64,000 bases of DNA from Candidatus Aegiribacteria sp. (GTDB lineage: Bacteria; Fermentibacterota; Fermentibacteria; Fermentibacterales; JCC-6). The DNA is taken from NCBI GenBank assembly GCA_023138735.1, contig JAGLOY010000105.1, forward strand, positions 393 through 64,392. Direction: 5' to 3'. This document shows, in pieces, positions 2,552 through 47,431 of the stretch (positions are counted from its first letter, which is position 1; each line of letters opens with the position of its first letter). The notes below the pieces were generated by a model. It saw only the letters and a list, made by a program, of their open reading frames with translations, ran no database searches and was not told where the DNA came from. The position numbers were made by a program, and so were the translations under genes.

Positions 2552-2554
2552 ATA

Positions 2555-7284: not shown

Positions 7285-7285
7285 T

Positions 7286-7633: not shown

Positions 7634-7750
7634 TGTAGCGCCGCCATTCATATCGGGAGAAAGCACTGTGGTTAAAACCTTTTCAGAATAGTAGAATATA
7701 ACCTGTATTAAAGATGTCAAAAAGGATCATTCTTAGACGGAAGATCAGAT

Positions 7751-10018: not shown

Positions 10019-10031
10019 CAGGAGTATACAG

Positions 10032-10328
10032 ATGTGTCTTGGAGTTCCCGGAAGGATCGAGGAAATATCTGGAAATGATGATCCTCTCTTCATCACAGGC
10101 AAGGTCAATTTCGGTGGTGTACTGAGGGAAGTCATCCTTGCCGGTATTAAGGATGCAAAGATCGGTGACTGGGTTATTGTTCATGCCGGTTTTGCCCTGA
10201 ATAAACTGAACGAGGAAGAGGCTTCGGAAGTATTCGAATATCTGAGACAGATATCCAAATTTGCTCAGAACGAGCTTGAGGATACGGAGGATAGCTCAGA
10301 CCGGACAGAAGAGGCGGGAATAGATTGA
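10032..10328 (+). CDS. hypC: Hydrogenase assembly chaperone HypC, with an acidic C-terminal tail
   Basis: N-terminal MCLGVPGRI signature. Confidence 0.9.
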
Positions 10329-20626: not shown

Positions 20627-20932
20627 GTCAGTCTCCTTTTCTGCAATAGCAAAAACGCGGTTTTATCAGAGCTTTACATTCCGATAATAGAATTTATACA
20701 AGTGCATTACCTGCATGCAAGAGCACCGATTTCGTATAATGAATTAAATATATATATAACAACTATATAGTCACCAATTTCAACACTACTTGTTAACGTT
20801 CAGTTTCTCTCTGTGGACTGGAATCGGTCAGTCATCTCTTGGCGGTTAACCGTATCAGGAATCCAATCAGGCATCTCTATATTGATGATAACCCGTACAG
20901 ACGATGAATGGCTACTGGACAATTGTCTACGG

Positions 20933-20938
20933 TATAAT
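20933..20938 (+). promoter_or_regulatory. Candidate -10 element (TATAAT) for the 21027-32504 array
   Basis: Perfect TATAAT 89 nt upstream of ATG 21027, in a 400-bp AT-rich gap. No convincing -35 element. Confidence 0.25.
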
Positions 20939-21026
20939 TAAGAATATATAGTTGTGTAGCTAAAAACATAAACAACTGAACAGTGGTTTATCGAGAAAGC
21001 TGCTATTCAAACCGAAAGGAAACAAA

Positions 21027-21380
21027 ATGGAAAAACTTCACAAAATACTGGAAGGACTTGTAGAAGTCAGCGGTATTGATGTTGCAGTCGTCGTTGGACG
21101 AGACGGATTCGTTATCGATGCTGCATCAACCGGCACATCTGATACAGAAGCCATAGGAGCGATGGTTTCCACCGGTCTGGGTTCAGCTGAAAGTGTCGGT
21201 CGTGAGCTGGGACTTGAGGAAATGGATCAGGCGATGATGGAGTACAAGAACGGTATAGTTATGATGACTGCACTGGGCAGCGACGCTCTTCTCGTTGTTG
21301 TTGCATCCAAGGATGCAAATCTAGGAGGAATCCGTCTTCAGGTAAGAAGAAGCGCTCCCAAACTTGTGGAAGCACTTTAA
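21027..21380 (+). CDS. Roadblock/LC7 (MglB-like) domain protein
   Basis: 117 aa. VSGIDVAVVVGRDGFVIDA ... ALLVVVASKDANLGGIRL pattern is typical of Roadblock/LC7. Confidence 0.8.
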   Translation: MEKLHKILEGLVEVSGIDVAVVVGRDGFVIDAASTGTSDTEAIGAMVSTGLGSAESVGRELGLEEMDQAMMEYKNGIVMMTALGSDALLVVVASKDANLGGIRLQVRRSAPKLVEAL

Positions 21381-21413
21381 TTAATCTAATTACCGGAAGC
21401 AGGTTCTCTTCGG

Positions 21414-21917
21414 ATGCAATTACCAAAAAATGAAGATACCAAGACTATCGAGGATCTTCTCTCTGGACTTGTTCGGCGTTCCGAAGCCATTACCGCTCTG
21501 CTGATAAGCAGGGAGGGTATCTGCATAAGTAAAGTCGGTAACGTGGAATCATTGAATTCTACAGCCCTTGCCGCACTTGTAGCGGGAATGTTCGCAGCTA
21601 CAAAGGAAGTGGCGAATATAGTCGGGGAAGAACAGTTTTCAATTCTGCTGCAGCAGGGAGAGAAGCGTCATATTCACATTTCTCTGATAGGCCAGAGAAG
21701 TATGATGATAGTCGTTTTTGAAGATTACAGAAGGATTGGACGTGTACGGCATGAGGCCCGGACAATCAGTCCCGATCTTGTCAGGTTACTCGAGAGCAGA
21801 GAAAAATCCAGGAAAGAGGATGCAGATGATCTTTCTGTTCCTGAGTTCAGGGAATATGCTCTGAATCTCATCGACAGGATATTTGTGGTTGGTGAAGAGG
21901 AAGATGCCTCATCTTGA
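21414..21917 (+). CDS. Roadblock/LC7 domain protein with a charged C-terminal extension
   Basis: ITALLISREGICISKVG ... MMIVVFEDYRRIGRV Roadblock-like core. Confidence 0.65.
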   Translation: MQLPKNEDTKTIEDLLSGLVRRSEAITALLISREGICISKVGNVESLNSTALAALVAGMFAATKEVANIVGEEQFSILLQQGEKRHIHISLIGQRSMMIVVFEDYRRIGRVRHEARTISPDLVRLLESREKSRKEDADDLSVPEFREYALNLIDRIFVVGEEEDASS

Positions 21918-22488
21918 TCCGATAGAGAAGCAGATTGTTTTCAAGATCGTGTACTTTGGTCCTGGTATGAGTGGTAAAACAACGAATCTGCTCTACATTC
22001 ATAAGGCCTTGATTGACAAGTATAAGGGAGAGATGTTGGTTCTAGATACGGAAAAGGAGAGAACCCTGTTTTTTGATTTCTTTCCAGTTTCGCTTGGAAC
22101 CGTTCAAGGTTATTCCCTTAAGTTTCACCTGTATACCATTCCCGGACAGATATTCTACGAAGCGAGTCGAAGGATCATACTCCTCGGTGCCGATGGTGTG
22201 GTGTTTGTTGCTGACTCATCAGCTGACAGACTGGACGATAATACTGAAATGTTCAGGTTGATGAATGAGAATCTCAGAAGTCATGATATCGACCCATCGT
22301 GTTTCCCTGTTGTATTGCAGTACAATAAGCGCGATCGTAATCCCAGGCTTGAGATTGGCTCAATAGAGCAAGAGCTTGGATTGGACAACATTCCCGTTAC
22401 CGAATCGATAGCTATCGAGGGTAAAGGAGTCATGAAAACACTGCAGGTTGTCAGTAAGGAGATTATAAAGCGTTTTCAGATAAGCTGA
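21904..22488 (+). CDS. mglA: MglA-family Ras-like small GTPase
   Basis: KIVYFGPGMSGKTTNL P-loop, MglA-specific PGQ G3 motif (HLYTIPGQIFY), and QYNKRD G4. Collinear similarity to Myxococcus MglA as I recall it. Confidence 0.9.
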   Translation: MPHLDPIEKQIVFKIVYFGPGMSGKTTNLLYIHKALIDKYKGEMLVLDTEKERTLFFDFFPVSLGTVQGYSLKFHLYTIPGQIFYEASRRIILLGADGVVFVADSSADRLDDNTEMFRLMNENLRSHDIDPSCFPVVLQYNKRDRNPRLEIGSIEQELGLDNIPVTESIAIEGKGVMKTLQVVSKEIIKRFQIS

Positions 22489-22512
22489 TGCGGAAAGGAT
22501 TACACATCTTTT

Positions 22513-23205
22513 ATGGCCATTAACGGTACACTGAGCGATATAGGTTTCGTTTCACTGCTCCAGTTTCCCAATTCCAGCAGAAAGACAGGTTTGCTTACAG
22601 TGATAACCATGGATGGCAAGGCCGAGTTCTACTACAGAAAAGGTGAACTTGTACATGCCAGGTACGGTAAGATGACTGGTATTGAAGTTCTTGTTGATAT
22701 TGTGGATTGGAATGAAGGCCAGTTCACTTTTGAACCCGATCTGGAACCGGATGAGACGACAATCAAGGATGATCTTCACCATGTTCTCATGTGGGCACTC
22801 AAGGAACGGGATGAGAGAAAGAAGGATCAGAATGAGAATGGCGGCACTCCTGAAGTAGAACTCGATGCCGAGCTTTCAGAAAAACTGGATGAACTTATGA
22901 AAGCTGCCTCAGGTATCGAGTACATCTGCATATTTACCACTCTTGGACAGCTTGTTGCCAGATCGATGTCTGATAGCAGTTTTCTTCAGGAAATTGAACC
23001 ATTCATGGAATCCATAACCTGTTTTATCTCTGAATACCCGGGTGGGGTAACAGGAAAAGTGTTTATCGAGGATATCAATATTTCAATCGCAATCTCGGGT
23101 CTTGATGAACAGCAGACGGTTGTCATTGCGACCGGTCCTTCTCTGAAACTTGGAAGGCTGGCCATGGCTCTGGGCAGAATTATAAGAGAATTAACCGGAG
23201 TATAG
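22513..23205 (+). CDS. DUF4388 (PATAN-like) domain protein with a C-terminal Roadblock-like domain
   Basis: N-terminal GTLSDIGFVSLLQF...GELVHARYG...EGQFTFEP pattern. C-terminal half has the Roadblock-like alternation. Confidence 0.65.
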   Translation: MAINGTLSDIGFVSLLQFPNSSRKTGLLTVITMDGKAEFYYRKGELVHARYGKMTGIEVLVDIVDWNEGQFTFEPDLEPDETTIKDDLHHVLMWALKERDERKKDQNENGGTPEVELDAELSEKLDELMKAASGIEYICIFTTLGQLVARSMSDSSFLQEIEPFMESITCFISEYPGGVTGKVFIEDINISIAISGLDEQQTVVIATGPSLKLGRLAMALGRIIRELTGV

Positions 23206-23217
23206 CGGATGTAAAGA

Positions 23218-24570
23218 ATGAATGATAGAAAGACCCACAACAGCTTGCATTTTGAAGAATTTCTTGAGATATGCTCCGATTCAGGTCTTATTGAGGAAGG
23301 AACAGCAAGAGAGATTATCAACTTTGCCAAGTCTATCGGCGGAGTAGGAGCCGTTCCAAGACTTACCGGTGAACAGCTGAGCAGTACGGGTGATTTTGCC
23401 GCATCCCTCGTCAGTATCTATCCTGACGACATGACTTTCAATAATTATGTAACCACGGAAGAGAATTATTACGCCACTGAAATAACCAGGACCATTGCCC
23501 TTATCCCCAGGGTCTGGAAGAGTATTACTCCCATCATGCTATATGCTCACACAGGTCAGGGTAAGACTCACCTGCTTGCCTCCATTGCCAGAGCAACCCA
23601 CAAGAGCACCCTTATCCTTAACACCGTTGATCTGCACATAGAGTATCAGCACTGTCTTAACGCCGGGATTGATAGAGAACTGCGGGATTGGATCACATCC
23701 TATGATCTCCTTATGCTGGATGATATTCAGTTTTCCCAGGGTGATCTTCAATTTCAGAAATTTCTGATTTCCGTGATCAATCGCATGCCCAGAGGCAAGC
23801 ACGGTATCATCACTTCATCAGATGTTCATCCTGCAAGACTGCTTGATATAGATTCCTCATTCTATTCCAGACTGACCTCAGGACTCGTTATCAAGCTTGA
23901 GACTGTCAATCTGGATGGCAGAAAGGAAATTCTTCGTAATCTTTTTAACGAGACGGGCATAAAACCGGATGAGGATATTCTCGAATTCATTGCTACACAT
24001 GTGATAATGAATGTAAGGCAGTTGAAGGCGGCCGGGCGGATGGTTCTTGCTCAGATGCTTGGTCCCAACCATGATGTAACGATTGATACGGTCAAGGATA
24101 TACTCAGCTTCATGCAGATATACAAGGGTGCTGAAGATCGGCCGAAGGCATCGGAACACAATGTAAAAGAAGAGAAAGAGGTTGAAACCACCTTGGATCC
24201 AACACCATATATTGTGGTTGATATCGATGAGGAAATTAAGATTCAGACAACTCCTTCTAAAACGAAAGCTGATGCAGAACCTGAGGTAACTGTCGATTTG
24301 AACCAGGATGATCACGTTTTCAGGGAGGAAATGGCGCTTCCTCCCATAATCGACAGCCCTCCAGATACTACCAGATACAAAGATATGGTGGAATCGGCTC
24401 AGACGGTTGATCGCCAGGTTGATGCATTGAAACAGGCAGTCGCAGAAAGAATTGAACAGCTTGAGGAGAAGAACGCCGATTCTAAAGAGATAGATAAACT
24501 GAGATCTGCATTAGCATATCTCAGAAAAGGTGAACTCGAATCAGCAATGATCGCTTTGAAACCTGAATAG
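23218..24570 (+). CDS. DnaA-domain-III-like AAA+ ATPase lacking the DnaA DNA-binding domain IV; acidic coiled-coil tail
   Basis: TFNNYV, Walker A HTGQGKTHLL, Walker B LLMLDDIQF, IITSS sensor, SRLTSGLVIKLE, NVRQLKAA. No HTH-like C-terminus. Confidence 0.8.
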   Translation: MNDRKTHNSLHFEEFLEICSDSGLIEEGTAREIINFAKSIGGVGAVPRLTGEQLSSTGDFAASLVSIYPDDMTFNNYVTTEENYYATEITRTIALIPRVWKSITPIMLYAHTGQGKTHLLASIARATHKSTLILNTVDLHIEYQHCLNAGIDRELRDWITSYDLLMLDDIQFSQGDLQFQKFLISVINRMPRGKHGIITSSDVHPARLLDIDSSFYSRLTSGLVIKLETVNLDGRKEILRNLFNETGIKPDEDILEFIATHVIMNVRQLKAAGRMVLAQMLGPNHDVTIDTVKDILSFMQIYKGAEDRPKASEHNVKEEKEVETTLDPTPYIVVDIDEEIKIQTTPSKTKADAEPEVTVDLNQDDHVFREEMALPPIIDSPPDTTRYKDMVESAQTVDRQVDALKQAVAERIEQLEEKNADSKEIDKLRSALAYLRKGELESAMIALKPE

Positions 24571-24605
24571 GAGAACTTTTCGAAGTATTCACACAGGAGG
24601 ATATC

Positions 24606-25091
24606 ATGGTTGAACAATTGGGTCGTTTTCATGGTGTAGCGTACCTGCTGGGTGCTCTTGCCCATGCATCCGAGAAGAACCTGGGCCAGAGCAGTCATTC
24701 GATTTGCATGCTGGCGGGTAAGAAATTCGGCAGGGAAGCCGTTGAAGATGTGGAACAGACCGATGATCCTGAGAAAGCTGTACAACTTCTTAAAGCAGCG
24801 CTTGAAAAACGGGGGATAGTCTGGGATTTCGAACCCTTCATGGGCGAGCGTGATGAGCTTATGGAGAAACGTGATGGTTCTGAGGTCATGAGGATCGTAT
24901 TCCGAACCTGCATGGTCAGAAACGCCCTTTTCCGATATGCGCACGAGCAGAAGGAATCCATGTGCTATATGGCTCACGGAGTTTTCTCTGGAGCCATGGA
25001 GAAGGTCATGCCCGGTAAGAAGGTAGAACTTGAGATTCTTCATGCAGGCCCAAATGCCTGTCTGAAGGAAATGATACTGGAGGATGCATGA
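24606..25091 (+). CDS. V4R (4-vinyl reductase-like) small-molecule-binding domain protein
   Basis: C-terminal pattern C-x17-C...G..SGA...E..H.G...C resembles V4R. Stop overlaps the hydrogenase small-subunit start. Confidence 0.55.
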   Translation: MVEQLGRFHGVAYLLGALAHASEKNLGQSSHSICMLAGKKFGREAVEDVEQTDDPEKAVQLLKAALEKRGIVWDFEPFMGERDELMEKRDGSEVMRIVFRTCMVRNALFRYAHEQKESMCYMAHGVFSGAMEKVMPGKKVELEILHAGPNACLKEMILEDA

Positions 25092-26002
25092 TGAAAACCA
25101 GAATTTCAACCGAGTGGCTTTCAGGATGTTCAGGATGTCATGTTGCCGTAGTAGATCTCCATGAAAAACTCCTGAATCTTCTTGATGATGTGGAGTTCGT
25201 CCGTATTCCTGTACTCATGGATGAGAAAGGATATCCTGAAGCCGAAGTAGGAATAGTAGAGGGAGCGATTAGAAGCGAACATGACAGGAAGGCTCTTCTT
25301 AAAATGAGGGAGACCTGCAAAACGCTGATCGCATTCGGCACCTGTGCTGCATATGGCGGGCCATCAGGTATCGGATGGCTCTATGATAAAGACTCCATTC
25401 TGAACAAGATATACAAGGAAACTGTTACAGCGGCAGATGATGGGAAACTTCCAGAGGGAGCACCGGAACTGGAGCAGAGTGTTACCCCTCTGAACGAAGT
25501 CGTAGATATCGATTTCTTTATACCGGGTTGCCCTCCTCATCCGTATTATATCGCCCTTGCCATCAAGACTCTGCTGGGTGCTTCGGTGCCTGCCATATCC
25601 ATGAAGACCGTATGCTCTGTATGCAATCGTCAAATGGAAAAGCGTGAAGGAGTGAAATTTCAGCGGGGGATGAGCACCGCTCCGGAGGAGGATATTTGTC
25701 TCCTGAGTCAGGGAGTCATCTGCCTTGGGTCAGTAACGCTTGACCGTTGTCAAGCTCAGTGTCCGAATAAAGGGATCACTTGTGCCGGATGCGCAGGACC
25801 TTCAATGGATATCATTACCGAACCACATCTGGACATTCGAACCATGATAGCCAGGAGAATGAGTTTGCTCACAGGAATTGATCAGAAAGAGATACAGGAA
25901 TATATTGAAAAGGAAGCTAAAACATTTTACTCCTACGCGATCTCATCACCGATTATCTATAAGAAACCTATGGTTGAGATAAGGGAGTGGGCAGGAAATT
26001 GA
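25088..26002 (+). CDS. [NiFe]-hydrogenase small subunit, MvhG-like (group 3 type)
   Basis: GCSGCH, GTCAAYGG and GCPP proximal-cluster motifs. C-terminal Cys-rich region for two further clusters. No Tat signal. Confidence 0.9.
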   Translation: MMKTRISTEWLSGCSGCHVAVVDLHEKLLNLLDDVEFVRIPVLMDEKGYPEAEVGIVEGAIRSEHDRKALLKMRETCKTLIAFGTCAAYGGPSGIGWLYDKDSILNKIYKETVTAADDGKLPEGAPELEQSVTPLNEVVDIDFFIPGCPPHPYYIALAIKTLLGASVPAISMKTVCSVCNRQMEKREGVKFQRGMSTAPEEDICLLSQGVICLGSVTLDRCQAQCPNKGITCAGCAGPSMDIITEPHLDIRTMIARRMSLLTGIDQKEIQEYIEKEAKTFYSYAISSPIIYKKPMVEIREWAGN

Positions 26003-26040
26003 ACCACCGTAACTCAAGGGGTAGGATTAAGAGGTAAACC

Positions 26041-27447
26041 ATGGCAACGAAAGTAATAGTAGATCCGGTAACGCGAATAGAGGGTCACGCCAGGATAATA
26101 CTGGAAGTAAACGATTCGGGTAATATATCCAGCGGTCATTTGCAGGTTCTTGAAATAAGGGGATTCGAGAAATTGCTTGAGGGAATGGAACTTTTCAAGC
26201 TTCCTCTTATAACCGGCAGGATATGCGGAGTTTGTCCCGCTGCGCACCATCTGGCATCTGTAACCGCCATTGAGAATGGTCTGAAAGTTAAGATTCCAGC
26301 CGATGCAAAATTACTCAGGGAGTTGATGTATCTCGGTCATATTCTCCATTCACATTCTCTCAGTACATTCGTCCTTACAGGCCCCGATGTTCTTGTTGGG
26401 ATTGGAGCTAAGCCTGAGGATCGTAATGTTCTATCCCTGCTGAGCATGGCACCGGAGATAGTTAAGAAAGTACTCAGATTGAGAAGCATCGGTCAGAAGA
26501 TCGTTGAGATAGTAGGAGGAAGGGGCGTTCACCCTGTAACATCCGTTCCCGGAGGACAGGCTTACCGCCCGAGTGCAGATGAAATCACAAAAATAGGTCT
26601 CTGGAGTGTAGAAGCTGCTTCACTTGTTAAGGAACTCTCAGATGTCCTTATGAAAAAGCTCGAGAATATCTCTGATCTCAGAGAAATAGCGGAGCTTCCC
26701 TTCCATTCGGTAGCCCTTTCCGATAACAACAATGTTACATTCATGCAGAATATCTGTAAAGTTCTTACCCCTTCAGGAGAAGAAGAAAGAACCTTTACCG
26801 CGGATGATTATGCGGACAACCTGGTGGAACATCAGATGCAGGGATCTTACATGAGATCTGTAAGGCTCAAATCCGGAGGAGAAGAGAAGAAGTACTTCGT
26901 TGGTCCCCTTGCAAGGCTCAACGTTAACAGCAGTTTCTCAACTCCTGAAGCAAATAGTCTCCTTGCAGGTTTCAAAGCTATAGGCAGCCCCAGGCTGTCA
27001 GCACTTGATTATCTTGAAGCCAGGCTCATAGAAATGGTTTTCTGCACCGAGAGAATCACTGAGATCTGCGGAGGTGAATTGGGGGATGGGCCGATCATTA
27101 CCGAGGCTTCTCCTGCAGGAGGCCGTTTCAGAGGCATAATCGAAGCTCCCAGAGGCATACTGATCCATGATTACGAAGCTGATGATGATGGTAAGATTAC
27201 CAGTGCAAACCTCATAGTCGCGACGCAGAACAACTACGATGCAATAGATCATGCGATTACCTCTCTTGCCAGGCACTTCAAACAATCGGGGGATGAAAAT
27301 ATTCTGATGAACGGCGCTGAATTCGCCCTCAGATGTTTCGACCCATGCCTCGCCTGTGCCACCCATGCGGCAGGCAGCATGCCCATGAAAATTGAACTCA
27401 GAAGAAATGGCAGAACCTTCAGAGTACTCAGAAGGGAGGGCAAATGA
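26041..27447 (+). CDS. [NiFe]-hydrogenase large subunit, MvhA-like (group 3 type)
   Basis: VTRIEGH, RICGVCPAAHH and DPCLACATH active-site motifs. 26-aa C-terminal extension after the His. Confidence 0.95.
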   Translation: MATKVIVDPVTRIEGHARIILEVNDSGNISSGHLQVLEIRGFEKLLEGMELFKLPLITGRICGVCPAAHHLASVTAIENGLKVKIPADAKLLRELMYLGHILHSHSLSTFVLTGPDVLVGIGAKPEDRNVLSLLSMAPEIVKKVLRLRSIGQKIVEIVGGRGVHPVTSVPGGQAYRPSADEITKIGLWSVEAASLVKELSDVLMKKLENISDLREIAELPFHSVALSDNNNVTFMQNICKVLTPSGEEERTFTADDYADNLVEHQMQGSYMRSVRLKSGGEEKKYFVGPLARLNVNSSFSTPEANSLLAGFKAIGSPRLSALDYLEARLIEMVFCTERITEICGGELGDGPIITEASPAGGRFRGIIEAPRGILIHDYEADDDGKITSANLIVATQNNYDAIDHAITSLARHFKQSGDENILMNGAEFALRCFDPCLACATHAAGSMPMKIELRRNGRTFRVLRREGK

Positions 27448-28172
27448 TGATAAAGATAATAATAGATGAAGATGCATGCGTAGGATGCGAACTTTGTGTT
27501 GATGAATGTCCTACGGATGTATTCGAATTCAACGAGGAGAAGAAAATACCGGAGGTTGTCCGGGAAAAGGAGTGTTTCGGTTGCCTCAGCTGCAGTGAAA
27601 TATGCCCTGCTTCCGCGATTACTCACGAGGATATCATACAATCGGAAGACTACTACCATGATGAGGAGAATGTATTACTCGTTTCCAGGCTCGCGGTCGA
27701 TGTACCACTCCCCAATACTCCATCCGATGAAGAACATAGAAAAGCGGCACTTGAGGATCTGGGTATTAGATTGCTTTCGGTGGCTGCGATATTCCGCCAG
27801 ACACTGGGAGGAAGTCTTCCCGCCGTTGGCACTATGGCAGGGAGAACGCTTGCCACACAGCTTCCCCGGTACAGGATTCCTCAATCCTTCGAGGAAGCGC
27901 TTGATATTGCAGTTGCGCAGTTCTCTCCCGCATGGGATCTGAAACCAGACTACGATGGAGGTTCGAAACTTGAAATAAAAGTTAAGAACTGCTTCATCCG
28001 TGAGCTGTGCAAAGAAGAAGGGATAGAGCTTGGAGAAGACCTGTGCATACTTTTTTATAATTATCTGGCAGGATATGCCGGAAAGCTTGGAAATGCCCGT
28101 CTGAAGCTTATCGAATCTTGTCCAGGCAGTAAAGAATGCAAGTACGATATCGAGGTATTCATTAAAAAATGA
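27444..28172 (+). CDS. 2[4Fe-4S] ferredoxin domain fused to a V4R domain
   Basis: CVGCELCVDECP and CFGCLSCSEICP. C-terminal CFIRELC...AGYAG...ESCPGSKECKYDIEV is V4R-like. Overlaps both neighbouring genes. Confidence 0.7.
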   Translation: MMIKIIIDEDACVGCELCVDECPTDVFEFNEEKKIPEVVREKECFGCLSCSEICPASAITHEDIIQSEDYYHDEENVLLVSRLAVDVPLPNTPSDEEHRKAALEDLGIRLLSVAAIFRQTLGGSLPAVGTMAGRTLATQLPRYRIPQSFEEALDIAVAQFSPAWDLKPDYDGGSKLEIKVKNCFIRELCKEEGIELGEDLCILFYNYLAGYAGKLGNARLKLIESCPGSKECKYDIEVFIKK

Positions 28173-28693
28173 TAGCCGATCAACGCTTTGTTCACCTGCT
28201 TGGCATAATAGGTGTAGGCAACACACTTGCAGGAGATGATGGTGCAGGAAATGCCGTTGTAAGCAGGCTTAAGGAGAAATATCCTGACAGTACCGATGTC
28301 TTTCTTCACAACCTGGAGACTGATCCTCTGGAATTATGGGATGTGCTTCCATCTGCGAAGAAGTTCATATTCGTGGATGCCGTTGCCGGGAAACCTGCCG
28401 GCAGGCTTGTCGCGGTTTCGAAAAGAGGAATGAGAAGAGCCTGGGCACCGTCTCTTCACAACATGGATTTGCCCACAGTAATAAGGCAGCTGTACCTCCT
28501 CCGGGGGGAAGATGAACCGGAATGGAATATCTGGGGAGTTACCATCGATATTCCGGATCATTTACAGGAAGGTCTGTCCTCGGCAGTATCCGAAGCCGTG
28601 GAGAGCCTTGTTGAAATACTATCAGAAAGGATTGAATCGGAAGACTACAGTGTAGAGGTACCGATTATCTTTGAACAATTTGAGAATACCTGA
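28169..28693 (+). CDS. [NiFe]-hydrogenase maturation endopeptidase (second copy in the window)
   Basis: GVGNTLAGDDGAGNAVV signature. Confidence 0.8.
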   Translation: MIADQRFVHLLGIIGVGNTLAGDDGAGNAVVSRLKEKYPDSTDVFLHNLETDPLELWDVLPSAKKFIFVDAVAGKPAGRLVAVSKRGMRRAWAPSLHNMDLPTVIRQLYLLRGEDEPEWNIWGVTIDIPDHLQEGLSSAVSEAVESLVEILSERIESEDYSVEVPIIFEQFENT

Positions 28694-28709
28694 TAAGAAA
28701 GGACCCTCT

Positions 28710-29234
28710 ATGGATCGTGAAAATAGTTTTTTTGCTCCTGTGAATTTTCTGGAAGAGAAAGATTTTGTTGACGCCTGTGGTTTACGTAGCACGGAGGAAC
28801 AGGAAGTAGTAATCGATCAGGGGTCTTTCAGCAATGATCTGTTCATAATCAAGAGTGGTCGTTTCGTTGTGAGTGATTCAAAGGGTGAGGAATTCGTTCT
28901 TGCCGCACTTTCCGAAGGTGACGTGTTCGGTGAAATGGCCTTCTTCAGAAGCGGAATAAGATCGGCCACCGTAACCTGTGTTACCCCTGGTGAGATTCTC
29001 TTTATCAGCAGGGATTCTTTTAAAGAATTACACGCGAAGCACCCCGATCTCTCGATAAGGATTGTATGTACACTGGCTGGGATGCTTTCTGACAGGCTAA
29101 AACATGCTGACGCGACCCTCAGCCTTCTATCGGATGACAGCGAGCTGAGACAGCGTTACGAAATACGCAGGCTCATAAGAGAATTGAAGATGTCGGTTCA
29201 TAAGCATCGCAGCAACGAAGCAACGGGTGAATGA
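28710..29234 (+). CDS. Stand-alone cyclic-nucleotide-binding (CAP_ED) domain protein without an HTH
   Basis: GDVFGEMAFF...RSATV phosphate-binding cassette. ATG 28710 is preferred over the TTG at 28671. Confidence 0.8.
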   Translation: MDRENSFFAPVNFLEEKDFVDACGLRSTEEQEVVIDQGSFSNDLFIIKSGRFVVSDSKGEEFVLAALSEGDVFGEMAFFRSGIRSATVTCVTPGEILFISRDSFKELHAKHPDLSIRIVCTLAGMLSDRLKHADATLSLLSDDSELRQRYEIRRLIRELKMSVHKHRSNEATGE

Positions 29235-29267
29235 CCCCTGTATTCAAATTCCACTACAGGAGTCTGA

Positions 29268-32200
29268 ATGGATAGCAAGACATCCAGCCGTTTTAACAGT
29301 ATTGGCATAGATTCTCTTACAGGTTTGAAAGACAGATCGTTTCTTGAAAGCATAAACGAGAAGTATTTCACCAAGGATAGTCCCTTGTCACTTCTCATGC
29401 TTGATGTTGATCACTTTAAATTGATAAATGATATCTATGGACACCTGACAGGAGACAAGGTTCTCAGACAGACTGCCCTTACGATACAGGTTAATCTCAA
29501 GGAATCTGATATCGCAGTAAGATTCGGCGGAGATGAATTCATCGTAATCCTTCCAGATACCTCGGAAGAGGGAGCGCTTGACCTGACCCAGAGGCTGATC
29601 TACGAGATAAAGCGGGTTGCGTTCACACCGGGGCTCCACGTAAGCCTTTCTATTGGAGTAAGTCAGAGCAGAAATTCCGATGTATCTATCATGGACCTTG
29701 TCTCACGTGCAGACAGGGCTCTGTACAAGGCCAAGGAGGCCGGCAGAGGAAGATTTTTCTTCTTCACTGAGGACCTTGCAGATTCTAAAGCTCCCGATAT
29801 CAATTTTTCTCATCTTGTAGGACGGAGATCTGAGCTACATAAACTTAGACAGCTCCTTGAAGAATCCGTGACAGATTCCGCCAGATTTGCAATCATTTCA
29901 GGGGAAGCTGGTGTAGGTAAGACTAGGCTCGTGAAAGAATTGCTGAATTACTGTGATTTCATTAAATCAGTTGTCTTGAGAAATTCGGTCATGGAGTATG
30001 CGCAGACGCAACCATTTGCCCTTCTGATAGAACCCGTCAGAGAAGTACTGTCCAGCCTCACTGACAGCGAACTTAGTTTGGTACGTACCGTTGTAGAGCC
30101 TGTTCATCCTGCCACGCTCGATCTATTTCCTGACCTGAAGGCGTCCGTTATGGATGAAACTATCTACTTTCGTGAAGAGAGACTCAGATTCAGGATATTC
30201 AGGGACATTTCAGTTCTTCTTGCTGCTGTTTCCGCGATTCATCCAATAACCTTAATACTGGATAACCTTCAATGGATTACTGAGCCTGATCTTGCCATAT
30301 TATCATTCGTTGCAAGGAATACACCTGAAGCGAACATCCTTTACCTGTGTATACTGAGGGTGAGTGAATTGTCGGATGAGACTTTCAAGAAACTCTCTGC
30401 TATCAGTACATCACTGCCTCTTCTCAGACTTGAGATCGACAAGATGACCGTTGAAGAAACGCGGAATATGATACTGTTTGCCCTTAAGGACCCGAATATA
30501 CCTTCCGAGGTTCAGGATTTCCTGATTTCCCAGTCTGGTGGGAATCCGCTGTTTTTAAGGGAACTCCTTACATCATGTGTGGATTCCGGATATATAACGT
30601 GTGATAAATCCGGAGAAAGCATCTATAACCTGCCGAACGATATTGAAGTGCCTGAGACAATTGGACAGATAATTACGCTGAAGCTTGCCGCCATAAGCAC
30701 TGAAGCCGGTGAACTGCTAAAAATAGTTTCCCTTTCACCGGATCAGTTCACACTTTCGCTGCTCGAAGGTATGACTGGTCACGATAAGGTTGAACTTGCT
30801 CGAAAACTGGATGAATGTACAAAAGCCGGACTGATTGAAGAGTTCAGCGATGGCAGAAGGGGCGTCTGTTTCAGGTTTACACACGGTGCTGCGCGGGATT
30901 ACCTGTCCGCTTACCTTCCAGATTCGCTGAAGCTAACCTACCATCAGAGGATGGCAGCATATTTTGAAGAGCTATTCGTAAAGGACAGGAAGGAACTTCT
31001 AACAGCTGTTGCATACCACTACTCCCGCAGCCAGGATGATGATAATGCCGCGCGATACGCCCTGCTTGCAGCGACTCAGGCCTTCAACAGGGGAGCCAAC
31101 AGAGATGCAATACACTGGTATACAATCTTCCTGGAGAGAATCCACCCGGATTCGGAGTCTGCCAGGAAATTCTCTGTCCATATCAATCTGGGTTCACTTT
31201 ATTCCATTACCGGTGAAGTGGAAATGGCGGACAATTACCTTGAACTGGCACTGGAACTGGCATCAAGTCCCAGAGAATTCGCTGCAGCTCATTTAAGGCT
31301 TGGAAGGAACAACCTGAACAGGAGTCTCTATCCGGAAACCCTTGAGAGTTACAGCAAGGCAGTTAAGATGTGCATGGAGGATGATTCAGGAGATCCGGTC
31401 GTTTTCAGGCTGCTTCTCGAGACACTGATAGAGACATCCTTTGTACATAGGCTTCAAGGGAACTACGATGAAGCCTTTGCTTGCCTTGACCGGGCCTCCA
31501 AAGCCATGAAAGAAAGTAATACCGGGATATATGATGATATTCAGGCCCAGTATTACACAAGAAGAGCTGATGTCATATCGGAGCTGGATTCCCAGAATGA
31601 TGCTCTTGAACTTTACGAAAGAGCCCTGGAGATATACAGAAGGATCGATGATATGCCCGGACAGGGTACGGTACTGAATAATATGCATTCCATCTATGCC
31701 CACAATGGTGATTACGCCACCAGCCTCAGCACGATGGAGGAATCCATCCGTATTAATCTGAAACTGGATGATAAGCTTGGCCTCGCCATAGGGTACTACA
31801 ATGTTGCTGAATATTACCAGGAGATAAACATGCTGGACCAGGCCAGGGAGTACTATGATAAGTACATGGAACTGAACGATATCATCAAGAATGAACTCGG
31901 CTTCGGATACGGAAGGTTCGGTCTTGGGAATCTTCATTGGCTCGAAGGAGAACTTGAAAAATCAAGGTTTTATTTTGAGGGTGCTCTGGAGGTATTCGAG
32001 AAGTTGCGATTCGACCAGATGAAAACAACCTGTGATCTTATGATAGCCCAGATACATGTTCAGATGGGTGAGTTTGATAAGGCGAAAGAGATACTGGACT
32101 TCATCGATGATGATACAATGAATCCAACAGTTGATCTCAATACACTTTACATGAAAGGTCTTGTACAGCTTCACCATCCGGATTCGGACAGGGAATCCCT

Positions 32201-32504
32201 TGAACGCGCAGAGGAAATATTAAGAAAAGTTATTAACTCCTCAACGGATCATTCGGAAGTAGATATTGCAATGTACTATTCGGCTCTGAATACAGCTCTG
32301 CAAAACCTCGGCAGAGATGAAGACATGATCGCAGCCCTTATAGAAGGGTCTATCAAACTCGCGGAACAACTACAACGCATTCAATCCTATTCCATAAGGA
32401 ACAGCATAATGACCAGACGCGAGATCGCAGAATTCATAGACCTCTGCCTCAGTAACAACCTGCCTTTTCCCCCCGATGGATTTGTTTTCAGAACAGACCG
32501 ATGA
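29268..32504 (+). CDS. GGDEF diguanylate cyclase fused to a STAND (AAA_16) NTPase and TPR repeats
   Basis: RFGGDEFIV active-site motif, Walker A GEAGVGKTRL, and C-terminal TPR-like repeats. 1078 aa. Confidence 0.85.
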   Translation: MDSKTSSRFNSIGIDSLTGLKDRSFLESINEKYFTKDSPLSLLMLDVDHFKLINDIYGHLTGDKVLRQTALTIQVNLKESDIAVRFGGDEFIVILPDTSEEGALDLTQRLIYEIKRVAFTPGLHVSLSIGVSQSRNSDVSIMDLVSRADRALYKAKEAGRGRFFFFTEDLADSKAPDINFSHLVGRRSELHKLRQLLEESVTDSARFAIISGEAGVGKTRLVKELLNYCDFIKSVVLRNSVMEYAQTQPFALLIEPVREVLSSLTDSELSLVRTVVEPVHPATLDLFPDLKASVMDETIYFREERLRFRIFRDISVLLAAVSAIHPITLILDNLQWITEPDLAILSFVARNTPEANILYLCILRVSELSDETFKKLSAISTSLPLLRLEIDKMTVEETRNMILFALKDPNIPSEVQDFLISQSGGNPLFLRELLTSCVDSGYITCDKSGESIYNLPNDIEVPETIGQIITLKLAAISTEAGELLKIVSLSPDQFTLSLLEGMTGHDKVELARKLDECTKAGLIEEFSDGRRGVCFRFTHGAARDYLSAYLPDSLKLTYHQRMAAYFEELFVKDRKELLTAVAYHYSRSQDDDNAARYALLAATQAFNRGANRDAIHWYTIFLERIHPDSESARKFSVHINLGSLYSITGEVEMADNYLELALELASSPREFAAAHLRLGRNNLNRSLYPETLESYSKAVKMCMEDDSGDPVVFRLLLETLIETSFVHRLQGNYDEAFACLDRASKAMKESNTGIYDDIQAQYYTRRADVISELDSQNDALELYERALEIYRRIDDMPGQGTVLNNMHSIYAHNGDYATSLSTMEESIRINLKLDDKLGLAIGYYNVAEYYQEINMLDQAREYYDKYMELNDIIKNELGFGYGRFGLGNLHWLEGELEKSRFYFEGALEVFEKLRFDQMKTTCDLMIAQIHVQMGEFDKAKEILDFIDDDTMNPTVDLNTLYMKGLVQLHHPDSDRESLERAEEILRKVINSSTDHSEVDIAMYYSALNTALQNLGRDEDMIAALIEGSIKLAEQLQRIQSYSIRNSIMTRREIAEFIDLCLSNNLPFPPDGFVFRTDR

Positions 32505-32639: not shown

Positions 32640-34016
32640 ATGAAAATCGTTTTTATGAAAACTGCAGTTCTGATATTGCTGATCGCAATGTTTCTGCTGT
32701 CATGCTCGGATAACGACAGTGAGGTAGACGGGATACCTGAAGAACTAGCTCAGGATGTATCTGAACACATAAATATAATACTGATAATAATCGATACACT
32801 CCGTGCAGATCATCTCTCATGCTATGGTTACCATCGATTAACCTCACCAACCATAGACAGTCTAGCTGCAGCTGGTACGATCTGGGTTAATGCTCAAGCT
32901 CAAGCTCCATGGACTCTTCCAGCGCATGCCAGCATATGGACCGGTCTGACCGTAAGGTCCCACAGAACTGAAACCAACCGCAATTGGATACGAAGTGATA
33001 GTTCAGGAAAGAATTACGCACTTGATGAAAACCTCCTTTCAATTCCCGTACTTCTCAGTGAAGCCGGTTTCAGCACCTGCGGGATCGCGAATGTGTGCCT
33101 GCTCGGCGATATTTACGGATTTGATAATGGTTTTAATAACTATTCATGTAATAGTGCCGGGCATGGTATGGCTGCAGTATCTGTGGATTCTCTGATAGTC
33201 TGGCTGGAGGAGAATAGTATGGAGCGTTTTTTCTGCATGCTGCACCTTTATGATGTACACGATCCATACGATCCACCCAGCCCGTATAACGCATTATTTG
33301 ACACTGAGAACTCTGGAGAAGCGACCGTATGGGAGGTAGAGGATGGACTACTTCTGAATCCAGAAGACAGAGATCATCTTGTAGGTCAATACGATGGCGA
33401 AATAGCCTGGGTTGATGATAATCTGCGCACACTTTTTGCCTGGCTCCGTTCCAGAAATCTGAACGAAAACACTCTGATCATCGTAACTTCCGATCACGGT
33501 GAGGAATTCCTCGATCATGGCTGGGTGGATCACGGACATACATTATATCAGGAACTTGTTCATATTCCCCTTATAATAGCCGGACCGGGAATAAGCGAGG
33601 GTTTCGTAGATTCTTCCTTTGTAGGGCAATTCGATATACTCCCGACCATGATCTCCTGGGCAGGTGTTGATTGTAACGGGCAGTTCGAGGGAGTTAACAT
33701 CCTTACTGATGACTTAACTGGTGACAGGGTAATACCTGCAAGTGGTGTTGTACCGGTTCCATGGAGTACAGGTGGACATCTGGCATCAGTCGCTTCCAAT
33801 TCCCGAAAAACAATTGGTATGAGTGATCTGGAAACATTTATTACATTCGATCTTAATATGGATCCCGGAGAAGAGCATTCTCTTCCAGCGGATTCATTGG
33901 GAGTGGAGGAGGTTCTGTACTACTGGGCAACTCCGCAGCGCGGATATCCTGTATTTGCAATGCCCGGCCAGGTGGAAGTGAATGCTCTGAGAAACCTGGG
34001 TTATATAAACGATTAG
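32640..34016 (+). CDS. Sulfatase-family (alkaline-phosphatase superfamily) lipoprotein
   Basis: Lipobox FLLSC. IIIDTLRADHL, WTLPAHAS (Thr in place of the C/S-x-P-x-R motif), TSDHGEEFLDHG. Confidence 0.8.
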   Translation: MKIVFMKTAVLILLIAMFLLSCSDNDSEVDGIPEELAQDVSEHINIILIIIDTLRADHLSCYGYHRLTSPTIDSLAAAGTIWVNAQAQAPWTLPAHASIWTGLTVRSHRTETNRNWIRSDSSGKNYALDENLLSIPVLLSEAGFSTCGIANVCLLGDIYGFDNGFNNYSCNSAGHGMAAVSVDSLIVWLEENSMERFFCMLHLYDVHDPYDPPSPYNALFDTENSGEATVWEVEDGLLLNPEDRDHLVGQYDGEIAWVDDNLRTLFAWLRSRNLNENTLIIVTSDHGEEFLDHGWVDHGHTLYQELVHIPLIIAGPGISEGFVDSSFVGQFDILPTMISWAGVDCNGQFEGVNILTDDLTGDRVIPASGVVPVPWSTGGHLASVASNSRKTIGMSDLETFITFDLNMDPGEEHSLPADSLGVEEVLYYWATPQRGYPVFAMPGQVEVNALRNLGYIND

Positions 34017-34074
34017 CCTGTTCTTCTTCATAATCAGTTTACTATTCCTGTACATATGAAAGGAAGATCAATTC

Positions 34075-35451
34075 ATGATAGGAGATTTCCAGAGAATACT
34101 TCTTGTTTTCCCGGAAACGCGGTATCCATCAGGACAGCCTCCCCTGGGACTTGGAATGCTGGTAGCGATCTCAAGGAATCTGAACCGCCAGATCGAGGTG
34201 TTCGACATGTCCTTCCGGAGTCACCCTTTTGAGGATCTGAGGACGGAACTGATCAGATTCCAGCCGGATACGGTGGGGATTTCCATCATGACCCCTCAGC
34301 TTGCGGATGCATGCAGAACTGCCTCCATTTCGCGTGAATTATTGCCGGAGGCACTTATTATTGCAGGGGGGCCTCACGCGACTGTTTTACCTGATGATAC
34401 GATCAGGAGAACCGGAGCGAATCTGGTTTATTCAGGTGAAGCTGAAAGAGCCTGGGCAGCTCTATTAGATGGTGTGGAACCCTCTGCTATCCCGGGAATG
34501 ACAATGATTAAAGAAGGGAAAATTCTCAGCGTTCCCGGTTTGATGCTCACTGAGGACCTGGACACACTTCCACTTCCCGACAGATCAGTATTCGATATGG
34601 AGAAATACTTCGCCTCATGGTACTCCATGGACAGAGTTGATCCCCGCCTCAGGGGAACATCCATAATGGCTACCAGAGGGTGCCCGTTCAAGTGTACCTT
34701 CTGCCAGCCAACGCTTAGTGAGATATTCGGAAAGAGAACCCGTAAACGTTCCCCTGAATCTATAGTCGAAGAACTTGAATCGATTGTAAAGGACTATGGT
34801 ATTAACGCTTTCATGTTCGAGGATTCCACTTTCATAATCGATGCGGAGTGGGTTAGAAGCATATGCGAGCTGATGATAGATAAAAACCTGAGACTCCGAT
34901 GGTGCTGTAATGTCAGAGCTGACCTCCTGACCGAGGATCTTCTCGATATCATGATAAAAGCCGGGTTGTCCAAGATAAATATGGGCGTGGAGTCTGCTTC
35001 CCAGAGGGTTCTTGATGAGATCTATGAAAAAGGAATTACCGTTGCTGGAGTAAGAAGAGCCCTCCGTATGGCAAAGGAGAGAGGTGTTAGAGTTCAGGGT
35101 TACTTCATGCTGGGAGCTCCAGGGGAAACGCATGAGGAGATGAAGAAGACTATCAGTTTTGCCTCGCGGGAACCCTTTGATGATGCCCTGTTCGATATTA
35201 CGACTCCATTTCCCCATACCGAACTCTGGGAAAGAACAAAAGAATTCATAACTAAGGATTACGAGGATTTTGATTGTTTTCACAAATCGGTGTACGAACT
35301 TGAGGGTTTCAATCCGGATAAAATAGAAAGAATGAAGAAGAGGGCTTTTTTCAGGTTCTACCTGCATCCGAGAAGAATACTGCAAACCCTGAAGACTATT
35401 ATGGGTTCCAGTAACCTGAAAAGAACCCTGATAAAGATCAGAAGGATATAG
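34075..35451 (+). CDS. B12-binding-domain radical SAM enzyme (class B)
   Basis: N-terminal Rossmann-like B12 domain and a RGCPFKCTFC CxxxCxxC motif. Confidence 0.85.
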   Translation: MIGDFQRILLVFPETRYPSGQPPLGLGMLVAISRNLNRQIEVFDMSFRSHPFEDLRTELIRFQPDTVGISIMTPQLADACRTASISRELLPEALIIAGGPHATVLPDDTIRRTGANLVYSGEAERAWAALLDGVEPSAIPGMTMIKEGKILSVPGLMLTEDLDTLPLPDRSVFDMEKYFASWYSMDRVDPRLRGTSIMATRGCPFKCTFCQPTLSEIFGKRTRKRSPESIVEELESIVKDYGINAFMFEDSTFIIDAEWVRSICELMIDKNLRLRWCCNVRADLLTEDLLDIMIKAGLSKINMGVESASQRVLDEIYEKGITVAGVRRALRMAKERGVRVQGYFMLGAPGETHEEMKKTISFASREPFDDALFDITTPFPHTELWERTKEFITKDYEDFDCFHKSVYELEGFNPDKIERMKKRAFFRFYLHPRRILQTLKTIMGSSNLKRTLIKIRRI

Positions 35452-35484
35452 TTATTATTTCATTCGAATGACTGGAGAACAGGA

Positions 35485-36910: not shown

Positions 36911-36967
36911 ATTAAAATAGCAAATAAAACAAACAATTATTCCTTGATAGATGCACATTATTTGTTT

Positions 36968-36993
36968 CTTATGAATAAAAAGCCTCCGTCCCT
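36968..36993. repeat. Copy 1 of a 26-bp direct repeat CTTATGAATAAAAAGCCTCCGTCCCT (copy 2 at 38217-38242)
   Basis: Read directly. Includes the start codon and first 7 codons of the S41-like gene. Confidence 0.9.
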
Positions 36994-38795: not shown

Positions 38796-39086
38796 TATTC
38801 TTTACAATAATTATCGGAAATCATTCATTTACGGAGGTGGTACATGTATATGCGTAATCGCATCTGATCTGCAGCCATGAACTCCGTGAGAGTTCGGATA
38901 TACAAACACGCAGCAAGTTGCTGTCTCCTCATATGAACTGACTCCCTGTTAATTCACAGCAGCCATGCTGTGAAACAGTGGAGGAGGTATTATTGTGCTG
39001 CAGCCATCCGCAGCCTTTTCATGAATGCGAACAATTCTCTCTGATAAGTGAAAACGAGATCACAAATTGTATTTCAGGAGGTTGTA

Positions 39087-47418: not shown

Positions 47419-47431
47419 GTCTGTATTTTCA

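Follow-up and report, generated by a model that had tools for sequence, protein, structure and literature searches.

Our analysis of a 64,000-nucleotide stretch of contig JAGLOY010000105.1 from Candidatus Aegiribacteria sp. (the whole of this stretch is called the window here) found that an array of twelve close-packed open reading frames on its + strand, at 21027-32504, joins an MglA-type small-GTPase switch module to a [NiFe]-hydrogenase flanked by V4R-fold proteins, and that the physical linkage of these two modules is real, old and far beyond chance. The host is an uncultured sediment bacterium, and the linkage is shared with relatives in at least five other phyla. We tentatively favour, at somewhat less than an even chance, the reading that a conserved core of ten genes encodes a cytoplasmic hydrogenase-based sensor of H2 or redox state, which would signal through Roadblock and PATAN proteins to an MglA/MglB switch. 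The genes of the array are:

21027..21380, + strand: Robl1, Roadblock/LC7 protein, 117 amino acids (Pfam Robl_LC7, 1.7e-18)
21414..21917, + strand: Robl2, MglB-like Roadblock protein, 167 amino acids (Pfam Robl_LC7; NCBIfam MglB, 1.9e-17, below cutoff)
21904..22488, + strand: MglA-family small GTPase, 194 amino acids from an ATG start (the longest open reading frame begins at TTG 21883)
22513..23205, + strand: PATAN (DUF4388) protein with a Roadblock-like C-terminal half, 230 amino acids (Pfam DUF4388, 2.1e-19, residues 5-103)
23218..24570, + strand: DnaA/Hda-like AAA+ ATPase, 450 amino acids (Pfam Bac_DnaA, 1.6e-21, residues 71-225)
24606..25091, + strand: X161, protein of V4R/Bet3 (TRAPPC3) fold, 161 amino acids (AlphaFold model and Foldseek)
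25088..26002, + strand: [NiFe]-hydrogenase small subunit, MvhG-like, 304 amino acids (Pfam Oxidored_q6; PDB 5odc_E, E 1.4e-74)
26041..27447, + strand: [NiFe]-hydrogenase large subunit, Mvh-like, 468 amino acids (Pfam NiFeSe_Hases; PDB 5odc_F, E 1.6e-86, and 7t2r_D, 4.4e-86)
27444..28172, + strand: ferredoxin (2x[4Fe-4S]) with a V4R-like domain, 242 amino acids (Pfam Fer4 families, residues 4-62)
28169..28693, + strand: HycI/HybD-type maturation endopeptidase, 174 amino acids (Pfam HycI, 1.7e-10; TIGR00072, 4.9e-25, above cutoff)
28710..29234, + strand: protein with a cyclic-nucleotide (cNMP)-binding domain only, 174 amino acids (Pfam cNMP_binding, 3.5e-20; the longest open reading frame begins at 28671)
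29268..32504, + strand: GGDEF-STAND (AAA_16)-TPR protein, 1078 amino acids (Pfam GGDEF, 4.4e-38; AAA_16, 6.2e-18; TPR/TPR_MalT)

The domain content that the original prediction had given to these genes was borne out by Pfam, NCBIfam, PDB, fold and profile comparison, with three calls falling below Pfam thresholds: X161 as V4R, which is supported by a fold search, and the C-terminal halves of the ferredoxin protein as V4R and of the PATAN protein as Roadblock, both supported by hhalign.

The linkage was followed in loci gathered from contigs with graded large-subunit homologues and by a large-subunit alignment scan, one genome per GTDB species, and the six-frame open reading frames of all loci were searched with the twelve window proteins. 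Tier A comprises loci whose large subunit has at least 55% identity to that of the window (Fermentibacteria, Aegiribacteria, Sabulitectum, Thermoanaerobaculales, Bryobacterales, Solibacteraceae, Eisenbacteria, Fibrobacterota and metagenome-assembled genomes of Geobacter), and tier B those with 41-45% (Desulfobulbales-type, Anaeromyxobacter and Acidobacteriota metagenome-assembled genomes). Tier C, at 38% or less, consists of ordinary archaeal and bacterial Mvh enzymes and serves as the classical control. Neighbours were counted in the informative loci, defined as those with at least 4 kb of sequence 5' of the large-subunit gene:

X161 adjoining: tier A 22/22, tier B 4/4, tier C 0/36
Roadblock adjoining: tier A 21/22, tier B 3/4, tier C 0/36
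PATAN adjoining: tier A 18/22, tier B 2/4, tier C 0/36
MglA-like GTPase adjoining: tier A 11/22, tier B 2/4, tier C 0/36

For the clade formed by tiers A and B the totals are 26/26 for X161, 24/26 for Roadblock, 20/26 for PATAN and 13/26 for the MglA-paralog GTPase, and the enrichment over tier C gives Fisher p values from 5e-18 to 1e-6, which overstate independence because related loci enter the count separately. All 26 clade loci carry the V4R-fold protein, the small subunit, the large subunit and the ferredoxin-V4R-like protein, usually together with the endopeptidase. The most constant neighbours of this hydrogenase unit are Roadblock and PATAN proteins rather than the GTPase, with Robl1 as the most constant companion gene of all. 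In one locus (L170, GCA_001875255.1, 13895-16725) the small-subunit, large-subunit and ferredoxin-V4R genes are called as fragments in an otherwise complete cluster, which could be decay or an assembly error.

Finding the GTPase/Roadblock and hydrogenase modules joined in relatives had been proposed as a check on the array, and they are joined in Fermentibacterota, Acidobacteriota, Eisenbacteria, Fibrobacterota, Desulfobacterota and Myxococcota, in arrangements that differ from lineage to lineage. In Fermentibacteria the order is MglB-MglA-PATAN-DnaA-like-Robl1 (or with Robl1 first) followed by the hydrogenase unit; in Solibacteraceae and Anaeromyxobacter a MglB-MglA-PATAN-Robl1 set is divergent from the hydrogenase unit; and in Thermoanaerobaculales PATAN-Robl1 precedes the hydrogenase unit, accompanied by a divergent PATAN-ParA-like pair, and no MglA gene lies within 10 kb. 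The modules are 33-669 nt apart where co-directional and 273-833 nt where divergent. The divergent genes of Thermoanaerobaculales-type loci (for example L006, 4529-6668, - strand, and L089, 6432-8483, - strand) are a second PATAN, a ParA/MinD-like ATPase and a 181-183-amino-acid protein without a Pfam match; this trio stands beside the PATAN-Robl1-hydrogenase unit in six loci and may be a functional stand-in for the MglA, MglB and DnaA-like genes. The operon-like packing that had been taken as a property of the array holds in the window and is not a general rule, because in several lineages the modules are divergent or separated by 166-669 nt. Nor are the two modules, often joined as they are, always so, since they lie apart in Sabulitectum. 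The genes that remain at the seam are Robl1 and PATAN. These separations and gaps are what one would expect if two independent operons merely happened to lie side by side in Aegiribacteria and the array were an artefact of compact packing. We regard such functionless adjacency as very improbable, strongly disfavoured as it is by an association that recurs in six phyla with rearranged gene order against 0/36 controls, and by generic MglA loci, which have no hydrogenase. The latter come from a GTPase-alignment scan of metagenomes, in which, among the matches listed, generic MglA genes (43-51% identity) have MglB 5' of them and no hydrogenase beside them; few members of the specific GTPase paralog clade were among those matches, on short contigs, so that linkage in the reverse direction is measured weakly, with look-ups of five contigs adding to it in part.

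The hydrogenase itself belongs to a distinct monophyletic sub-clade of Mvh-like (group 3c-like) [NiFe]-hydrogenases. In the large-subunit phylogeny, a check that had been suggested for the array, tiers A and B were monophyletic in 50/50 neighbour-joining bootstraps against the sampled classical group 3c members, to which they have at most 38% identity. The closest structures are 5odc_F and 5odc_E and the best NCBIfam models VhuA and VhuG, far under their equivalog cutoffs: the large subunit scores 295 against a cutoff of 800 for VhuA, its best match, and the small subunit 228 (1.1e-67) against 450 for VhuG. As judged from the residues, the [NiFe] dimer is intact, with all Ni-Fe ligands in place. 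The large-subunit motifs RIEGH, RICGVCPAAH and DPCLACATH are invariant in 14 clade members, both CxxC pairs are present, and a 26-residue extension follows the last His, while the small subunit has, as read from its sequence, the cysteine set of the proximal cluster and eight more cysteines in its C-terminal half.

What sets the sub-clade apart is its company. No MvhD was found in the 43 clade loci (within about 10 kb around the hydrogenase) or in the window, compared with 38/48 classical group 3c loci, and HdrA, HdrB and HdrC, each found in 29-34 of the 48 classical loci, were likewise absent from the window and from the 43 loci, where a Fer4 cross-match to the ferredoxin protein was the only match. 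The tier C control shows the textbook layout, HdrA-MvhD-MvhG-MvhA-HdrC-HdrB. Adjoining the clade hydrogenase there is neither a flavin, NAD(P) or Hdr module nor any gene for a catalytic electron acceptor, in agreement with the claim that the array lacks such partners. By its gene content the sub-clade is thus without two features that define group 3c in HydDB, MvhD and the linkage to Hdr; it has lost both, and has gained as partners a V4R-fold protein and a ferredoxin joined to a second, probable V4R domain.

The first of these partners, X161, occupies the place held by mvhD in classical Mvh operons, and its gene shares 4 nt with that of the small subunit. Its match to Pfam V4R (PF02830) is weak (E 0.16; 12.5-15.7 bits, below the gathering cutoff of 31), and a search of PDB sequences gave no match to it. 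Its AlphaFold model (mean predicted local distance difference test score, pLDDT, 80.4) has a two-layer alpha/beta Bet3/V4R fold and matches TRAPPC3/Bet3 and the sensor domains of PoxR, MopR and DmpR with a Foldseek probability of 1.0 and template-modelling (TM) scores of 0.45-0.53; the top matches are 6aq3, 2j3w, 1wc8, 5frw and 5kbi, at 11-18% identity. Three cysteines are invariant in the family (C102, C120 and C152) and a fourth, C34, nearly so; PoxR and Thor-TRAPPC3 have a Zn site built from cysteines (PMC10933270). The family is small, with 63 representatives out of 1.84 billion in a profile search. Some of these are fusions: an X161-like domain (residues 568-718) ends the 722-amino-acid protein P0398, which matches the 'ternary complex associated domain' TCAD9 below threshold, and further X161-like fusions of 306-352 amino acids have no Pfam match and are, with P0398, possible Rosetta-stone fusions.

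The second partner, the ferredoxin-V4R protein, is present in 23/23 tier A loci and is represented in tier B by separate ferredoxin and V4R-like open reading frames. Its C-terminal half matches Pfam ATC_hydrolase below cutoff (1.3e-5) and aligns with the X161 family by hhalign (E 1.5e-3; 126 colinear columns), cysteine falling on cysteine, and the X161 profile also picks up a Fer4-fused homologue in which Pfam V4R reaches E 1e-4 (22.8 bits, below cutoff). In its single-sequence AlphaFold model (pLDDT 42) only the order of secondary-structure elements agrees with X161. These comparisons make the C-terminal half a probable diverged paralogue of X161 with a V4R/Bet3 fold, and the whole protein is predicted to be an electron-accepting or signal-coupling subunit. 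A bona fide XylR_N+V4R protein, with a recorded Pfam match, was seen in Sabulitectum, just 5' of hypF and the hydrogenase unit (L173, 2961-3605, - strand).

On the other side of the array, the residues and closest relatives of the GTPase place it unmistakably in the MglA family, as part of what appears to be a complete MglA-type switch with an MglB-like partner. It matches MglA of T. thermophilus (3t12_A) with E 2.8e-55 and that of M. xanthus with 6.5e-52, and the P-loop GPGMSGKTT (G19-T27), the switch-I Arg53, the PGQ motif (P80-G81-Q82) and NKRD (N141-D144) are invariant in the hydrogenase-linked copies. Those of Anaeromyxobacter, Solibacteraceae and Acidobacteriota have 53-57% identity to the window copy and 48-52% to M. 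xanthus MglA, and 44-52% is the range to M. xanthus MglA for the linked clade as a whole; the copy of an Anaeromyxobacter metagenome-assembled genome has 48% to M. xanthus MglA and 55-65% to the other linked copies. Because the linked copies are closer to one another than to M. xanthus MglA, they probably form a paralog clade apart from the canonical motility MglA. Robl2 matches M. xanthus MglB (6izw_B) with E 1.1e-16 over residues 11-161, its gene shares 14 nt with that of the GTPase, and in relatives its homologue is always immediately 5' of the GTPase gene; it is predicted to be the GTPase-activating protein (GAP) partner of the MglA-like GTPase. The top PDB matches of Robl1 are the plain Roadblock protein 7f8m and the conservon protein CvnB5 (3leq). 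The PATAN protein gave no match in the PDB sequence search, and its C-terminal family aligns with the Robl1 family by hhalign (E 8.8e-5, 109 columns). The AAA+ ATPase matches NCBIfam DnaA (3e-42) only over positions 106-339 of the 437 of the model, and Hda with 6e-23; it is without the DNA-binding domain IV, has an acidic low-complexity tail, and is confined to Fermentibacterota (10/22 tier A, 0/4 tier B and 0/36 tier C loci).

Several lines of evidence lead us to the sensor reading: the clade-specific linkage recurs across phyla despite changes in gene order and orientation; a monophyletic hydrogenase clade has dropped MvhD and Hdr, with X161 in the place of mvhD; no neighbour is a catalytic electron acceptor, the same logic by which HydDB reads sensory roles for group 2b and 2c enzymes; the GTPase is a complete switch with an MglB-like partner and a paralog clade of its own; there are precedents in the conservons, in MglA-PATAN gene neighbourhoods and in the interaction of PATAN regulators with the pilus motor; and the Mrp/Mbh tail and hyp genes of the window indicate that another enzyme produces H2. 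In such a system, H2 oxidation or evolution at the Ni-Fe site would determine how reduced the clusters of the small subunit and the ferredoxin-V4R protein are, and the V4R pair would then alter its binding to the Roadblock/PATAN adaptors. These could in turn tip the MglA paralog towards GTPase activation or towards nucleotide exchange; its usual GAP would be the MglB-like Robl2. MglA-GTP might act on polarity or on the type IV pilus machinery, in Fermentibacterota possibly through the DnaA/Hda-like AAA+ ATPase, with a cNMP-binding protein and a GGDEF-STAND-TPR cyclase added downstream in Aegiribacteria. Fermentibacteria (Hyd24-12) have no flagella, carry type IV pilus genes and have a membrane-bound H2-evolving hydrogenase (PMC5030696), and in an H2-producing fermenter of this kind the system would link movement over surfaces, or attachment, to the H2 around the cell. 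As a further refinement, the two V4R/Bet3 subunits and the Roadblock proteins could together form a platform similar to TRAPP/Ragulator, with guanine-nucleotide exchange factor (GEF) or GAP action on the MglA paralog gated by the redox state of the hydrogenase, which we consider unlikely.

A number of observations weigh against a sensory role. The GTPase adjoins the hydrogenase in only half of the informative loci (13/26). Sabulitectum has its hydrogenase unit flanked by hypFCDE and hypAB, where neither Roadblock nor MglA is encoded, and a five-gene MglA module stands alone at a separate locus. The large subunit keeps its C-terminal extension and a dedicated endopeptidase, whose gene is present in 22/23 tier A loci, whereas the characterised regulatory enzymes of group 2b are without the extension. 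In several genomes (L005, L008, L170 and L173) hyp genes directly bracket the unit as they would an ordinary structural operon. Hdr or MvhD could be encoded elsewhere in the genome; the 2x[4Fe-4S] domain could simply be a docking site for soluble ferredoxin, in which case the enzyme would be metabolic; and the signalling mechanism is one that we infer from gene neighbourhood and folds.

Most of these points would be expected of a metabolic, ferredoxin-coupled cytosolic hydrogenase of fermenters, evolving or consuming H2, in which the V4R proteins are structural or ligand-binding and the switch module receives no H2 signal, the MglA/Roadblock/PATAN proteins instead regulating or positioning the enzyme or just sharing its promoter region. 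Intact active-site and Fe-S ligands, a C-terminal extension, a protease of its own, flanking hyp genes, modules that can be separated, and a ferredoxin domain of the ordinary 2x[4Fe-4S] type all fit this possibility, as do published metabolic reconstructions of Hyd24-12, which take cytosolic hydrogenases as metabolic. We nevertheless hold this, the main rival of the sensor reading, to be somewhat unlikely. It leaves unexplained why Roadblock and PATAN genes stand beside this clade in six phyla and never beside classical Mvh, why every recognisable catalytic electron-acceptor module has been lost, and why the accessory subunits have the fold of ligand sensors and GTPase regulators; moreover, the organism already owns a ferredoxin-dependent hydrogenase of the Mrp/Mbh type. 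A further proposal, that the MglA module is a hydrogenase maturation factor, was rejected because the module is found alone in Sabulitectum-type loci.

The signal could also run in the reverse direction, with the MglA switch recruiting or activating the hydrogenase at the pole or at the membrane near Mbh, the Roadblock/PATAN proteins acting as a tether and the V4R proteins as a dock. In Myxococcus, MglA-GTP brings effectors to the pole, the bridge genes Robl1 and PATAN remain with either module after separation, and an Mrp/Mbh cluster is encoded in the same window. This arrangement seems to us distinctly improbable, as domain scans found no membrane anchor or polar-targeting domain in the hydrogenase unit, GTPase-positioned hydrogenases are without known precedent, and the hydrogenase of Thermoanaerobaculales keeps PATAN and Robl1 with no MglA nearby.

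The sensor reading as first put forward extended to a second-messenger output and to a unit of twelve genes, and here our results depart from it. The ten-gene core (21027-28693) is conserved, and the cNMP and GGDEF genes are Aegiribacteria additions: the former occurs in 5/23 and the latter in 3/23 informative loci, all of them close Aegiribacteria relatives, and the GGDEF gene is already missing from Aegiribacteria MLS_C. We therefore describe a ten-gene core with two lineage-specific genes, and do not retain the second-messenger output as part of the conserved system. The GGDEF motif of the 1078-amino-acid protein is intact (RFGGDEF). A defence-system reading of the STAND, GGDEF and cNMP genes was rejected for the core by PADLOC, which gave no match for the Roadblock, GTPase, PATAN, X161 or ferredoxin-V4R proteins and generic domain-level matches only for the cNMP and TPR parts.

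Within the window, the array is as compact as had been claimed. Computed from the coordinates, the junctions are, in order, +33, -14, +24, +12, +35, -4, +38, -4, -4, +16 and +33 nt, which agrees exactly with the spacing range of -14 to +38 nt and the four overlaps of the original prediction. A scan for terminators found no terminator-like site on the + strand in any junction, including the one that separates 21027-24570 from 24606-28693, where a terminator would have divided the array. The AT-rich gap of 400 bp in front of the first gene is also real (20627-21026, GC content 0.365 against about 0.46 in the flanks) and contains, 75-110 nt 5' of that gene, a candidate promoter found by a consensus scan:

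20916..20952, + strand: promoter-like block, TGGACA-N18-AAGAAT overlapping TTGTCT-N18-TATAGT

Sigma-70-like sites are no more numerous in this region than chance would give. The stretch ACTGGACA...AAGAATAT(A/G)TA is the best-conserved intergenic one among four Aegiribacteria loci (the window, L003, which is MLS_C, L009 and L031). A sigma-54 reading of TGGACA...TTGT was rejected because the GG-to-TTG spacing is wrong.

The rest of the window adds a second hydrogenase system. A membrane hydrogenase cluster of the Mrp/Mbh type is represented by its tail at 223-5028 (+ strand; Oxidored_q2, MnhB, Proton_antipo_M, MNHE, MnhG and a Fer4 protein) and is served by its own HycI-type endopeptidase (4489-5028), separate from the copy in the array. 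It is followed by hyp genes at 6616-12474: hypB 6616-7314 (- strand), hypF 7751-10018, hypD 10325-11419 and hypE 11419-12474. Since this cluster tail and the hyp genes are present, 9-20 kb 5' of the array, the organism has a separate and presumably H2-evolving [NiFe] enzyme, which agrees with the reconstruction of Hyd24-12. In other Fermentibacteria (L005, L173) these hyp genes stand immediately on both sides of the V4R-hydrogenase unit. Four proteins of the window have no Pfam family at the thresholds used (5030-6631, + strand, 533 amino acids; 13783-15153, - strand, 456; 36944-38227, + strand, 427; 52502-55468, - strand, 988), the first of them encoded between the HycI gene and hypB, within the hydrogenase region, and a 402-amino-acid protein with a histidine-kinase-type HATPase_c domain is encoded between hypE and the array (12500-13708, - strand). 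On the 3' side of the array, 32640-36885 (+ strand) encodes a sulfatase followed by two paralogous B12-binding radical SAM proteins, with a second sulfatase at 44780-46114 (- strand); in Aegiribacteria MLS_C the radical SAM pair is also 3' of the array, and the GGDEF and sulfatase genes are absent. A thiamine pyrophosphate (TPP) riboswitch (47418-47524, - strand; 61 bits, above the gathering score) directly 5' of thiC (46114-47418, - strand) is an ordinary arrangement. Large secreted proteins with type IX secretion sorting domains (Por_Secre_tail, CHU_C) are encoded at 39048-40100, 50646-52505 and 55770-59393, consistent with an organism of the Fibrobacterota-Chlorobiota-Bacteroidota (FCB) group.

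Hydrogen is a central currency of anaerobic communities, and our results suggest a previously undescribed bacterial route of H2 sensing, by a hydrogenase through a small GTPase. In six phyla this hydrogenase clade, without Hdr or MvhD, keeps V4R subunits beside Roadblock, PATAN and MglA genes, which points to an output of a different kind, a small GTPase, and provides a testable candidate for how fermenters without flagella might tie movement by pili, attachment or syntrophic positioning to the level of H2. The finding also bears on the annotation of metagenomes, where such genes routinely carry the label 'F420-non-reducing hydrogenase' and are taken for Hdr-linked bifurcating enzymes, an assignment contradicted by their neighbourhood. 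That the composition was undescribed had been part of the original prediction, and literature searches, in which subscription journals were thinly covered, turned up no account of a V4R/Roadblock/MglA-hydrogenase cluster or of a Fermentibacteria counterpart. Studies of the prokaryotic origins of TRAPP and Ragulator have, moreover, so far been without such a set, in which genes for V4R (Bet3-like) proteins, Roadblock proteins and a Ras-like GTPase are linked. If the platform model were true, it would be a third kind of H2 sensor, with a Ras-like GTPase as output, and the first operon-level link of V4R, Roadblock and small GTPase in prokaryotes, bearing on the origin of eukaryotic GTPase regulators.

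The likeness to those eukaryotic complexes is one of parts. As in the TRAPP core and Ragulator-Rag, Bet3/V4R-fold proteins (one confirmed, one probable) occur together with three domains of Roadblock type and a GTPase of the Ras superfamily, here linked in one locus, whereas comparable genes of the Asgard archaeon MK-D1 are reported to lie generally outside operons with GTPases (Tran et al. 2024, PMC10933270). Unlike TRAPP and Ragulator, the resemblance is at fold level only (TM about 0.5, 11-18% identity), Roadblock domains take the place of longins, the GTPase is MglA and not Rab, and a hydrogenase lies between the parts. The closest relatives among hydrogenases are the Mvh/Vhu enzymes (HydDB group 3c), with which the clade shares a cytoplasmic location, both CxxC pairs, a small subunit with several clusters, and a C-terminal extension with its endopeptidase. 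It differs from them in that a V4R-fold protein takes the mvhD position, the large-subunit gene is followed by one for a ferredoxin-V4R-like protein, and the neighbours are Roadblock, PATAN and MglA genes, which none of the 36 classical loci has.

To our knowledge, [NiFe] H2-sensing circuits, established or proposed, are of two kinds only, linked to a histidine kinase or to a diguanylate cyclase. HydDB reads sensory roles for the histidine-kinase-linked group 2b and the diguanylate-cyclase-linked group 2c from the same neighbourhood logic as the one applied here (PMC5037454). Like groups 2b (HupUV/HoxBC with HoxJ) and 2c, the array combines a [NiFe] dimer with signalling proteins and has no gene for a catalytic acceptor, and the GGDEF protein downstream in the window recalls group 2c in particular. 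Unlike them, the enzyme is group 3-like and keeps its extension and protease, no kinase is encoded in the array, GGDEF is restricted to those 3/23 loci, and in place of a histidine kinase it has Roadblock and PATAN proteins and an MglA GTPase as conserved partners.

The switch half of the array compares in turn with the MglA/MglB system of M. xanthus and T. thermophilus, all the hallmarks of MglA being present and an MglB-like gene lying directly 5', to which a plain Roadblock protein, a PATAN-Roadblock fusion, a DnaA/Hda-like ATPase and a hydrogenase are added. RomR and RomX did not turn up in the array, where no search was aimed at them. Wuichet and Sogaard-Andersen (PMC4316618) found PATAN genes near some mglA groups, with no hydrogenase mentioned, and a preprint reports contact between PATAN regulators and the motor of type IV pili (bioRxiv 10.1101/2021.06.11.447907). 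The conservons, in which a sensor, a Roadblock protein and an MglA-like GTPase go together (PMC4316618), offer the nearest precedent for the whole: like the cassette CvnA, CvnB, CvnC and CvnD, the array holds a presumed sensor, Roadblock proteins and an MglA-family GTPase as one set. It differs from them in its phyla and in that the presumed sensor is a hydrogenase and not a membrane histidine kinase; by Pfam, neither the kinase CvnA nor CvnC (DUF742) is encoded in the array. The cluster is new as a combination, kin to the signal-protein-linked hydrogenases or to the MglA modules with a sensor, with a minority chance that it is categorically new.

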